NCBI GenBank assembly: GCA_021613535.1
Contig: CP075493.1
Span: forward strand, 17,422,001-17,486,000
DNA: 64,000 nucleotides
Origin: Adineta vaga
Taxonomy: Eukaryota; Animalia; Rotifera
Direction of reading: 5' to 3'
The notes under the pieces were generated by a model, which was not told the DNA's origin, made no database searches, and saw nothing but the letters and a program-made list of their open reading frames with translations. Positions 20,156 through 22,474 of the stretch are shown here, piece after piece (the stretch's first letter is position 1; every line of letters begins with the position of its first letter). The position numbers were made by a program, and so were the translations under genes.

Positions 20156-22474
20156 ATGCCTATTAAAGGGCTTTACGTCGTCACATTAAGCTTTTTTGGC
20201 ATATTTGCTGTTGTAAATGCTCAGAGTGCATTCTTAGATAATGTAAAAAACAATACTTTAGTACATCATATTGAGACAAATACCGTTTGGCAGTATATAG
20301 GTAGTTATTCACAAATTGATGGTTCGATCAATTATATTACCGAGATACCTGTTTTTCAGTTTCTGTGCGATGTTCTTCCAATTCGAATGGCTTATGCCTT
20401 AGAAACATGCATAGAATATAGAGCTCTTCTTCTGAAAAACAGCGATGTTCTGCGATTGAAGGAAGTCGCGGAAGACCATGCTAAAAGTCGAACAAAACGA
20501 CAAGTAATAGAAGGAATAGCAGTTAGTGGAGTTGCCTACACGTTGTATCGTATTGTCGGGGATCTACTGGGCCCCAGTAACTTACAACTAGCGCATAGAT
20601 TAGAGGATGTAGAGAATTTTCGGGGACATCAAATTGCCTTGAACGAGATAATGAATACCGCTATTGCGTCACTTCAGAATAATCAGTTAGCTATTTTAAA
20701 ATCCTTTAAAGATGTTTATGATGACGCAAATGCTACTCGTCAGTATCTATATCAGCATATTCGACAAGTAATTGCTTTTCGAAATGAGTACGACTCTTTC
20801 GCAAAGCATGCGATACTTCAGGAAATGCGCAATCATTATGATAAAATCGTACATTCAATAACTAAAATCGAAGAGCATAAATTGAATCTTGACTTCTTGA
20901 CTGCAGAACAACGTTCCATTACATATAATTTCGTGTATGAAGCTGTAAAAACACTTTTACCGGAGGATTTTGGAGCATCTCTAAGTGCTTTCATACCAAA
21001 ACTTCTTGTCCATCAAATATTATCATTTACTTCTGTCAATGAGAAGAATATTTCTTACGAATTGACTGAAGATGATTTTCAATTTGATGTTAGTGTCGAT
21101 CCTAAGTTTGAAAAATTAAATCAAACAGTGGATCTTGACGAAATTATTCCAAAGATTGTTGGCCATTTAAGAGTCGAAAATATCTTTGGACGTCCAATAA
21201 ATAGCAGGCAGAGAAAGAGTGATCTTTATAAAGTCACAAAACTACCTTTCTTTATCACATCGACGAGAGCGGCACAAAGCTCTCACATACCAACGTACTT
21301 TACGTTGAGTCCGGATGGATATTCTTCGGAATGGGAAAACCACGACCATCGACGTTGCACGTTTGATGAGCGCTCCAAATTTCTGTTTTGTGCCGTTCCT
21401 ACTCCAGTATATAGCCAAATTCAGAATCCTTGTATTCGAAGTATTGTATTTAATACAAATACTTCAGAATGTACGAAGGATGAAATAGATTTATTTTCGC
21501 CTCAAAGTATCCGTTTAGCACCAGATATATTTGCTATTTCGACTGATTCGAAATTACAATGTTTAGAAAAGAATGATAAGAAAGAAAATCTTTGGACAAA
21601 TATTAATAAGGTTAGCATTATCAGAACAAAATGTAACTCCTACGTATCGTGCGGCAAATTCGATCTTCGATCAGATGTCTGTAGAGATGAAAATGTTTAC
21701 ATCCTTTCGATGAAAAAATCTATTGCTCCATATCGTCTCGGAGAATCAGTAAACGAAGCACAGTCAGATATTTTGACTTTGAGACCTTCACTTAATATAA
21801 GTGCTTTATTGAAAGAAATAGGCATAGAAGAACGACTTCGGGAAGATGGATTTAATCAATTTCGACAAAATGTATCGAATGTGATTCAATCGAAATGGTC
21901 GTTGACGTTTTTTCTGATTATTTTTGCCGTTGCCACTCTACTGATTTTTACGATCTACGTGTTTTGTAAATGTTATTTCAAACGCTCTCTACTAAAATTA
22001 TTCTGGTGCTATGAAAAATCAGCGAAGCCGATAACTTCTAGCACAGACACTAGGTTAAATACTGTTTTAACTGAGTATAAAACTAATGTTGGTGATGCTG
22101 CAAGACAGGTACCACCACCTATTATTCCTCGAAATCGATCAAATTCGTTTCTTGAAAGACTGAGTATTCCTTCACGCTGCGTTAATTATATTTTACCACC
22201 TAATTATCATCGAGATGAGAATATGAAATTAAAATTTCATAATCAGCACTCTAGTATTATAGCGTATGATGTTCCTGCTGTTGGAAATCAACTGAATTAT
22301 ACACAGAGTGCCTCGCATAACTTTCATCCGAGTAATTTTATTCGTGAATCAAGCGCCTCTATACGTCCAGATATCTCTTTTCAAAAAGAAGCTATAACAG
22401 CAATGAATCAGTCAGATAAAACATCAGGATCTTTTTTTGAGGAAGATAAAAGCGTATTTAACGATAATATGTAG
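20156..22474 (+). CDS. Class I viral fusion glycoprotein-like protein (Env/F type), 772 aa, intronless
   Basis: Signal peptide (aa 1-22), furin site RTKR (20489-20500) followed by the hydrophobic peptide QVIEGIAVSGVAYTLYRIVG, heptad repeats, a Cys-rich ectodomain with N-glycosylation sequons, one TM helix (~21896-21975) and a long cytoplasmic tail. Confidence 0.8.
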   Translation: MPIKGLYVVTLSFFGIFAVVNAQSAFLDNVKNNTLVHHIETNTVWQYIGSYSQIDGSINYITEIPVFQFLCDVLPIRMAYALETCIEYRALLLKNSDVLRLKEVAEDHAKSRTKRQVIEGIAVSGVAYTLYRIVGDLLGPSNLQLAHRLEDVENFRGHQIALNEIMNTAIASLQNNQLAILKSFKDVYDDANATRQYLYQHIRQVIAFRNEYDSFAKHAILQEMRNHYDKIVHSITKIEEHKLNLDFLTAEQRSITYNFVYEAVKTLLPEDFGASLSAFIPKLLVHQILSFTSVNEKNISYELTEDDFQFDVSVDPKFEKLNQTVDLDEIIPKIVGHLRVENIFGRPINSRQRKSDLYKVTKLPFFITSTRAAQSSHIPTYFTLSPDGYSSEWENHDHRRCTFDERSKFLFCAVPTPVYSQIQNPCIRSIVFNTNTSECTKDEIDLFSPQSIRLAPDIFAISTDSKLQCLEKNDKKENLWTNINKVSIIRTKCNSYVSCGKFDLRSDVCRDENVYILSMKKSIAPYRLGESVNEAQSDILTLRPSLNISALLKEIGIEERLREDGFNQFRQNVSNVIQSKWSLTFFLIIFAVATLLIFTIYVFCKCYFKRSLLKLFWCYEKSAKPITSSTDTRLNTVLTEYKTNVGDAARQVPPPIIPRNRSNSFLERLSIPSRCVNYILPPNYHRDENMKLKFHNQHSSIIAYDVPAVGNQLNYTQSASHNFHPSNFIRESSASIRPDISFQKEAITAMNQSDKTSGSFFEEDKSVFNDNM

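Follow-up and report, generated by a model that had tools for sequence, protein, structure and literature searches.

A 23-kb KDZ DNA transposon of the bdelloid rotifer Adineta vaga carries a gene for a predicted F-type fusion glycoprotein

Results and Discussion

The DNA analyzed here is a stretch of 64,000 nucleotides from Adineta vaga (contig CP075493.1, positions 17,422,001 to 17,486,000), referred to as the window, and the gene under study, located at 20156–22474 on the plus strand, encodes a predicted F-type class I fusion glycoprotein (F) of 772 aa with a 166-aa tail. This gene is neither an orphan envelope (env) gene nor the env gene of a long terminal repeat (LTR) element, but a gene of a 23,391-bp DNA transposon of the KDZ superfamily (5387–28777). 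An earlier reading, made from the sequence only, had described a mobile fusogen; the mobility was borne out, whereas the KDZ DNA transposon in which F resides had escaped that reading. In our estimation there is about an even chance that this long-held F acts for the transposon as a membrane fusogen and would thereby bring element DNA, probably in host-membrane vesicles, into new cells. A KDZ transposon with an F-type envelope is undescribed in the literature that was found, and a demonstration of particles would make it a new kind of element.

Limits and mobility of the element

The limits of the element were taken from its end repeats and from contigs that cross its right end. It is flanked by an 8-bp target-site duplication (TSD), GTTTATTG, with the left copy at 5379–5386 and the right copy at 28778–28785 (both on the plus strand). 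In runs X1, X2, X3 and X5, which are DNA or unlabelled runs and three of which may share their source with the window DNA, 13, 15, 11 and 13 contigs, respectively, lost their match exactly after 28777, and the sequences beyond this position were unlike each other (agreement 0.44). The right end of the element is at 28777, and about a dozen sites share it, the number of full-length copies aside. From the duplication alone, the left end would lie at 5387. A direct repeat by itself is weak evidence, because about 4% of random window pairs have a 9-mer in common. A 9-bp TSD was dropped in favor of the 8-bp TSD because the contigs diverge behind 28777. The 8 bp fall within the 7–8-bp TSDs of KDZ transposons, and the 11–15 unlike flanks found in four of four runs are those of a mobile element.

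The insertion splits a decayed host open reading frame (ORF) into a left piece at 4872–5378 and a right piece at 28787–29095, both on the plus strand, the latter being covered in four runs by a contig that is approximately 12% diverged. The two halves are in phase across the duplication, an agreement with a one-in-three chance of arising. This ORF had no Pfam match; presumably it resembles a decayed seven-transmembrane receptor, an identity that is not confirmed.

Just inside both ends are subterminal arrays of a 52-nt unit. The left array (5434–7767) holds approximately 44 copies as counted with Tandem Repeats Finder (TRF) and is broken at about 5865–6191, and the inverted right array (27116–28731) holds 31 copies that are 96% complementary to the left array and is adjoined by a GC-rich 40-nt tandem array (26271–27029). 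Inversion is confined to the subterminal arrays: the outermost 45 nt of the element are not inverted repeats, and its termini read CA..TC. No LTR pair was present among the repeats listed for 5000–30000, and Rfam gave no match in 5000–29200. What breaks the left array (5865–6191) is a unique sequence of approximately 330 nt, which contains short CATG-rich palindromic repeats. The 52-nt unit (28660–29038) is an abundant genome repeat, because its summed depth was very high (approximately 5,800–29,800) in all four runs.

The contigs of run X2 also bear on the number and form of the copies. Contigs from the element interior, F included, had depths of 115.7–120.2 compared with 11.7–15.1 for long host-flank contigs, which is 8–10 times the depth of the flanks in this one run and suggests either extrachromosomal forms or several copies that are nearly identical. 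Other contigs leave the element at 7863 and 7878, and from these loose ends there would be derivatives whose interior is deleted or different. An internally deleted derivative is suggested because one of these contigs runs on from the element into the 40-nt repeat of 26271–27029.

The fusion protein and its predicted fold

As the sequence-only reading had claimed, the F gene is intact, with an uninterrupted frame and no stops, and the signal peptide, RTKR site, Cys-rich domain, transmembrane (TM) segment and juxtamembrane cysteines that it listed were all seen. The N-terminus is hydrophobic. The putative cleavage site RTKR occupies residues 112–115, and R-X-K-R was conserved at this position in all 15 sequences checked; the segment behind it is modestly hydrophobic (19-residue Kyte-Doolittle (KD) value of 1.2–1.3). 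Eight cysteines lie within residues 401–509, and the single, C-terminal TM segment (approximately residues 585–603) is followed directly by C604 and C606.

The long cytoplasmic tail, described earlier as about 165 aa, proved to be a feature of the group. A post-TM tail of 130–177 aa was present in seven of the seven close relatives checked, compared with 11–61 aa in the four distant F-like proteins checked. Between the window copy and that of A. ricciae, the ectodomain is more conserved (414 of 440 residues identical over 141–580) than the tail (113 of 166). The tail motifs noted from the sequence fared unequally, as PxxxPR is kept in 6/7 tails and YDxP in 4/7, while LPPNY, a PPxY motif, occurs in the window copy alone (1/7), so that conservation lends no support to the late-domain role suggested for it. 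PxxxPR motifs bind SH3 adaptors. An acidic terminal motif, S-x-x-(F)FEE(D/N), which the earlier reading overlooked, was found in all seven tails using a permissive pattern.

Neither Pfam, PHROGs nor a PDB sequence profile recognized F, and structure alone did. In an AlphaFold model built from a 24-row alignment, long helices were predicted at residues 186–239 and 548–578. When this model was compared with PDB using Foldseek, all of the listed rows among the top 50 were F proteins of respiratory syncytial virus (RSV), human metapneumovirus (hMPV) or paramyxoviruses, with a best E value of 1.4e-9. The best match in BFVD was a granulovirus F (E 2.4e-13), and the BFVD matches included baculovirus F proteins and arthropod mononegavirus glycoproteins. 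VIA aligned the model with RSV F at a Z score of 10.7 and a root-mean-square deviation (rmsd) of 4.6 over 250 residues (span 32–510). The AlphaFold and Foldseek check, proposed earlier for a trimer and made here on the single chain, came out with a class I F-type match, and the model supports a paramyxovirus, pneumovirus and baculovirus F-type class I fold for the ectodomain. Taken with the sequence features, F of the window is predicted to be a furin-cleaved class I fusion protein.

Three runs were guessed to be RNA. They yielded low-depth pieces, some of them just 3′ of the F stop codon (22488–22910; runs X18 and X19), and these were not counted as evidence for expression because such pieces also occur between genes.

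Linkage of F to KDZ transposons in other bdelloids

All named relatives of F are from bdelloid rotifers (Adineta, Rotaria and Didymodactylos), and A. vaga gene models match the genes that neighbor F. Linkage in these relatives was assessed indirectly, from contigs of the same size, from neighboring accessions or, in one case, from a chimeric gene model. In A. ricciae, F (CAF1413627/CAF1487227), the KDZ transposase (CAF1413648/CAF1487192) and a DUF3987 gene (CAF1413663/CAF1487175) all have a longest contig of 44,541 nt. F P0004, KDZ P0074 and DUF3987 P0117 share a contig size of 43,819 nt (ENA). In R. magnacalcarata, F CAM4800503 is found with KDZ CAM4800506 (61,583 nt), and F CAF1379971/3992063/4057279 with KDZ CAF1379989/3992076/4057294. 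In R. socialis, F and the N-terminal part of KDZ are united in a single gene model (P0009, P0054), with DUF3987 at neighboring accessions. The gene order DUF3987-KDZ-F of the window is also found in A. ricciae and R. socialis. Among the F records outside the window that are on contigs of at least 14 kb, a KDZ link was seen in 6/10, two of which represent the same R. socialis locus. These indirect data place F beside KDZ in two rotifer genera, down to 34% identity.

The two proteins were also compared for their pattern of divergence. In five linked relatives, the identities to the window varied together and were 86, 63, 39, 34 and 38% for F and 90, 74, 51, 51 and 39% for KDZ; the Spearman rho between F and KDZ identity was 0.58 for 15 non-independent pairs and was not treated as a test. 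Trees of the two proteins, which were quick searches with no bootstrap, placed the six linked F/KDZ pairs in the same two clades, with Shimodaira-Hasegawa-like approximate likelihood ratio test (SH-aLRT) values of 98 and 100 for F and 99 and 100 for KDZ. On neither tree did the label "linked" cluster more than in shuffled data (72 and 500 of 500), since the context of the unlabelled rows is unrecorded. The long-tailed F proteins form a clade of 11 rows with a support of 100, apart from short-tailed F-like proteins at 19–26% identity. These short-tailed proteins, from Didymodactylos and others (P0026, P0062, P0028, P0034, P0038), belong to clusters with contigs of up to 124 kb and may be the env proteins of LTR elements. 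IMG/VR contained no relative by protein or by the 52-nt repeat, and one metagenome scan, queried with the KDZ alignment, turned up just one locus, of 1.6 kb.

Other genes of the element

The KDZ transposase is encoded on the plus strand in two parts. The N-terminal part (12085–12479) is 89% identical to residues 1–137 of P0073, and the part with the CxC5 domain and the catalytic region (14470–15795) includes LDGH, YDDACH and TEVCEQ, which we take to be the D-D-E triad. The Pfam KDZ family (PF18758) was matched above its cut-off (E 1.2e-9), and CxC5 at E 1.3e-6. The two parts are separated by a nested non-coding repeat of 1,990 bp (12480–14469) with 7-nt inverted ends and a CA duplication, which interrupts the window copy of the transposase and is absent from a 12,958-nt DNA contig of run X2. 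The repeat has ACGCGT-rich subterminal repeats, diverged copies of it occur elsewhere in run X2, and presumably it is similar to a non-autonomous element of the CACTA/TRC type.

Divergent to the transposase is a gene for a DUF3987 P-loop helicase-like protein of approximately 717 aa (8196–10884, minus strand; Pfam E 5e-26), with GYPGANKS and LWDE motifs and three exons (10884–9697, 9216–8929 and 8888–8199) that were placed by tblastn of P0156. Its A. ricciae ortholog P0115 (95% identical) matched a PHROG annotated as "DNA helicase" (E 5e-13) and resembles primase-fused phage proteins. Between the two divergent genes is an AT-rich 39–40-nt tandem repeat (11144–11455), a possible shared promoter region.

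An SGNH/GDSL hydrolase of 248 aa (18195–18941, plus strand) has the motifs GSSI, GTND and DNLHP, and residues 1–45 contain 16 K/R and zero D/E. It matched Pfam Lipase_GDSL_2 below the curated cut-off (E 1.5e-4; Atlas 0.94–0.95), and its single-sequence model was not usable, with a predicted local distance difference test (pLDDT) score of 31.6. A small spliced transcript (24552–25243, minus strand), the frame of which is broken in this copy, has a 53-nt GT-AG intron (25030–25082); the splice joint is present in run X19 and absent from the DNA contig. This gene matched no Pfam family at cut-off.

The GC content at third codon positions (GC3) was 0.27–0.29 in four element genes compared with 0.11–0.22 in four host ORFs. 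The Pfam scan covered 24 of the 28 window ORFs of at least 150 aa (the remainder being an antisense frame with overlap and three frames that run over a tandem repeat) and revealed no reverse transcriptase (RT) or retroviral integrase, in agreement with the earlier remark that no gag-pol is nearby. Within the element, the Pfam and PHROG scans found no RT, retroviral integrase, polymerase, matrix or capsid gene; no ORF is long enough for PolB, and no PolB, RVE integrase or jelly-roll capsid was matched in Pfam. A further 42 short frames and exon pieces matched no Pfam family at cut-off.

Comparison with known elements

Among KDZ transposons, Zisupton and Dileera have 8-bp TSDs, and Kyakuja has 7-bp TSDs, CA..TG ends and no terminal inverted repeats (TIRs) (PMC12730594). 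The element shares with these a KDZ transposase with CxC5, with Zisupton and Dileera the 8-bp TSD, and with Kyakuja the lack of TIRs (PMC12730594). Taken strictly, it fits neither Zisupton, which has TIRs where the element has none at its very ends, nor Kyakuja, as its 8-bp TSD and CA..TC termini differ from the 7-bp TSD and CA..TG of that group. Unlike all of them, it carries F-type envelope, DUF3987 and SGNH genes and kilobase-sized inverted 52-nt arrays. The supplement of the KDZ study has no rotifer entry (PMC12730594), neither KDZ nor Zisupton occurs in the main text of a survey of bdelloid transposable elements (PMC7943196), and transfer of Zisupton into nematodes has been reported (PMC9297572). 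In literature outside Repbase, subscription papers and most supplements, no KDZ transposon that carries either an envelope or a DUF3987 gene was found; a database entry may exist.

F-type env genes are widespread in metazoan Ty3/gypsy elements (PMC13524379), and the TelKA LTR elements of A. vaga have a paramyxovirus-like env of approximately 600 aa (PMC5408684). The env proteins of TelKA and of F-type errantiviruses are like F in having an F-type fold, an RXXR site with a fusion peptide (putative in F), a Cys cluster and a TM segment (PMC5408684, PMC13524379). F differs in its 772 aa, its long tail, the absence of LTRs and pol, and its own clade (SH-aLRT 100), whereas TelKA env, compared here by description, follows gag-pol within LTRs.

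Mavericks, casposons and Teratorn have been named as links between DNA transposable elements and viruses (PMC5718144, PMC6431247). Nematode Mavericks gained a gB-like fusogen, MFUS-1, that is proposed to drive horizontal transfer, and are thus DNA-based mobile elements that acquired a viral fusogen (bioRxiv 2022.07.12.499685). They differ in having PolB, a retroviral-type integrase, a packaging ATPase, jelly-roll capsids and a class III fusogen (bioRxiv 2022.07.12.499685), none of which was found in the element. Teratorn, in which piggyBac is combined with a herpesvirus, likewise joins a DDE transposase to viral genes in one unit, but comprises 180 kb and a whole herpesvirus, compared with 23 kb and one envelope gene here (PMC6431247, PMC5718144). 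The carriers of envelopes that were found in print among DNA elements (Mavericks, Teratorn) are virus-like units with capsid and polymerase, and an envelope-only transposon would be a simpler route to infectivity. SGNH hydrolases are present in other mobile elements, namely the esterase ORF1p of non-LTR elements, for one of which (ZfL2-1) liposome binding has been shown (PMC3905857), and the GDSL ORFs of bdelloid Vesta and Athena. The SGNH gene described here, likened to these by description and not by alignment, differs in belonging to a DNA transposon, where its neighbor is an envelope gene.

Proposed mechanism and alternatives

The explanation that we favor can be laid out as a series of steps. 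KDZ would excise and integrate the element, with the 52-nt arrays as binding sites, and the DUF3987 ATPase would unwind or amplify the excised DNA using host enzymes. The basic SGNH protein would tie DNA to membranes, as proposed for the esterase ORF1p of non-LTR elements; by this analogy it is a candidate packaging protein. The tail motifs (PxxxPR, YD and the acidic FFEED end) would recruit host trafficking adaptors, furin would cut at RTKR and free the fusion peptide, and fusion would bring element DNA, wrapped in vesicles rather than in a capsid, into the germline or another animal. KDZ elements have retained F through deep divergence, and we infer that what keeps it there is its help in the crossing of membranes by the element. 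A wider possibility, put forward more tentatively, is an infectious element of a new kind, in which a KDZ (DDE) transposon free of capsid and polymerase makes enveloped particles, using its class I fusogen, a membrane-binding SGNH protein and a phage-type helicase, and moves DNA between bdelloid individuals and species. In asexual bdelloids, the persistence of transposons and the passage of DNA from one individual to another are long-standing questions, for which the element offers a defined, multi-site candidate vehicle in a cultured species, with copies that can be typed and a fusogen that can be assayed.

Several observations weigh against membrane fusion in the service of the transposon. 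Packaging is unexplained, because the scans for capsid, matrix and polymerase genes came up empty. The F model has a middling mean pLDDT of 57.8, with a disordered tail and values below 50 in the fusion-peptide region, and the heptad repeats claimed earlier have a counterpart in the two long predicted helices but, in a crude test of a/d positions, did not rise above shuffles (483 and 672 of 2000). Contig depth is not equal to copy number, and the depth ratio comes from one run. No KDZ neighbor was seen for 4/10 of the long-contig F records, with 10/21 KDZ matches looked up. Besides the window's own, F linkage was seen in 4/20 KDZ match clusters, while KDZ-DUF3987 adjacency was common; many elements may therefore move without F, and F may mark a KDZ sub-lineage or be often lost.

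The lack of a recognized capsid gene also fits a process in which F fuses entire cells, such as oocytes with soma or nurse tissue, and transposase and excised DNA cross a shared cytoplasm with no particle; the conservation and linkage data fit this as well. Cell-surface F proteins are able to form syncytia, and bdelloids have largely syncytial tissues. We nevertheless regard whole-cell fusion as unlikely, as tails of 130–177 aa with conserved adaptor-like motifs suggest sorting to a membrane compartment, and fusion of this kind would give no transfer between animals. Somewhat less likely again is that F is old LTR env cargo kept for a benefit to the host, such as the blocking of receptors used by env-bearing elements or viruses. 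In favor of this, A. vaga has TelKA elements with a paramyxovirus-like env, and accessory ORFs, GDSL among them, are shared by bdelloid elements (PMC5408684); short-tailed F-like relatives at 19–26% identity are known, and many KDZ-DUF3987 pairs show no F. However, F has stayed in its place within the element while it and the transposase diverged together, to 34% identity, and no stand-alone copy of the long-tailed clade was seen.

The presence of an integrase, a phage-type helicase and an envelope within one unit, for which Teratorn and the nematode Mavericks are precedents, raises the question of whether an enveloped DNA virus, so far undescribed, is present here in integrated form. KDZ would then be its integrase and DUF3987 its replicative helicase, and the capsid would be unrecognized (SGNH or the small spliced gene) or supplied by a helper. 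The 8–10-fold interior depth and the form that lacks the nested insert would fit extrachromosomal copies, but the 11–15 integrated ends could also explain the depth. The element has no detected polymerase, primase or capsid, its helicase gene has introns, and IMG/VR gave no match by protein or repeat, so that we consider a provirus improbable. Far more improbable is a domesticated single-copy host fusogen, of the syncytin or Iris type, that lies among transposons by chance. Its intact, intron-less ORF, the apparent constraint and the absence of gag-pol would be expected of such a gene; F, however, lies within an element that is bounded by a TSD and interrupts a host ORF, has raised depth, and keeps its transposon neighbors in relatives; the TSD and the many different flanks already speak against domestication.

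Other features of the window

Outside the element, a 286-aa His-rich membrane ORF (53674–54534, plus strand) had no Pfam match and may be of foreign origin; we assume that it resembles a fatty-acid hydroxylase/desaturase. At 33562–36273 on the minus strand, a dynamin-like GTPase ORF is followed, beyond a single stop and in the same frame, by a kinase-like ORF. An ORF of 407 aa (44651–45874, minus strand) encodes a Tc1/mariner-like transposase with weak helix-turn-helix (HTH) and DDE_3 matches, and an NAD:arginine ADP-ribosyltransferase domain is encoded at 51337–52017 on the plus strand (Pfam E 2e-12). Two related gene clusters, at 1794–4128 (plus strand) and 55816–61080 (minus strand), encode bdelloid membrane proteins and, behind these, FG-GAP repeats, and are in opposite orientation.
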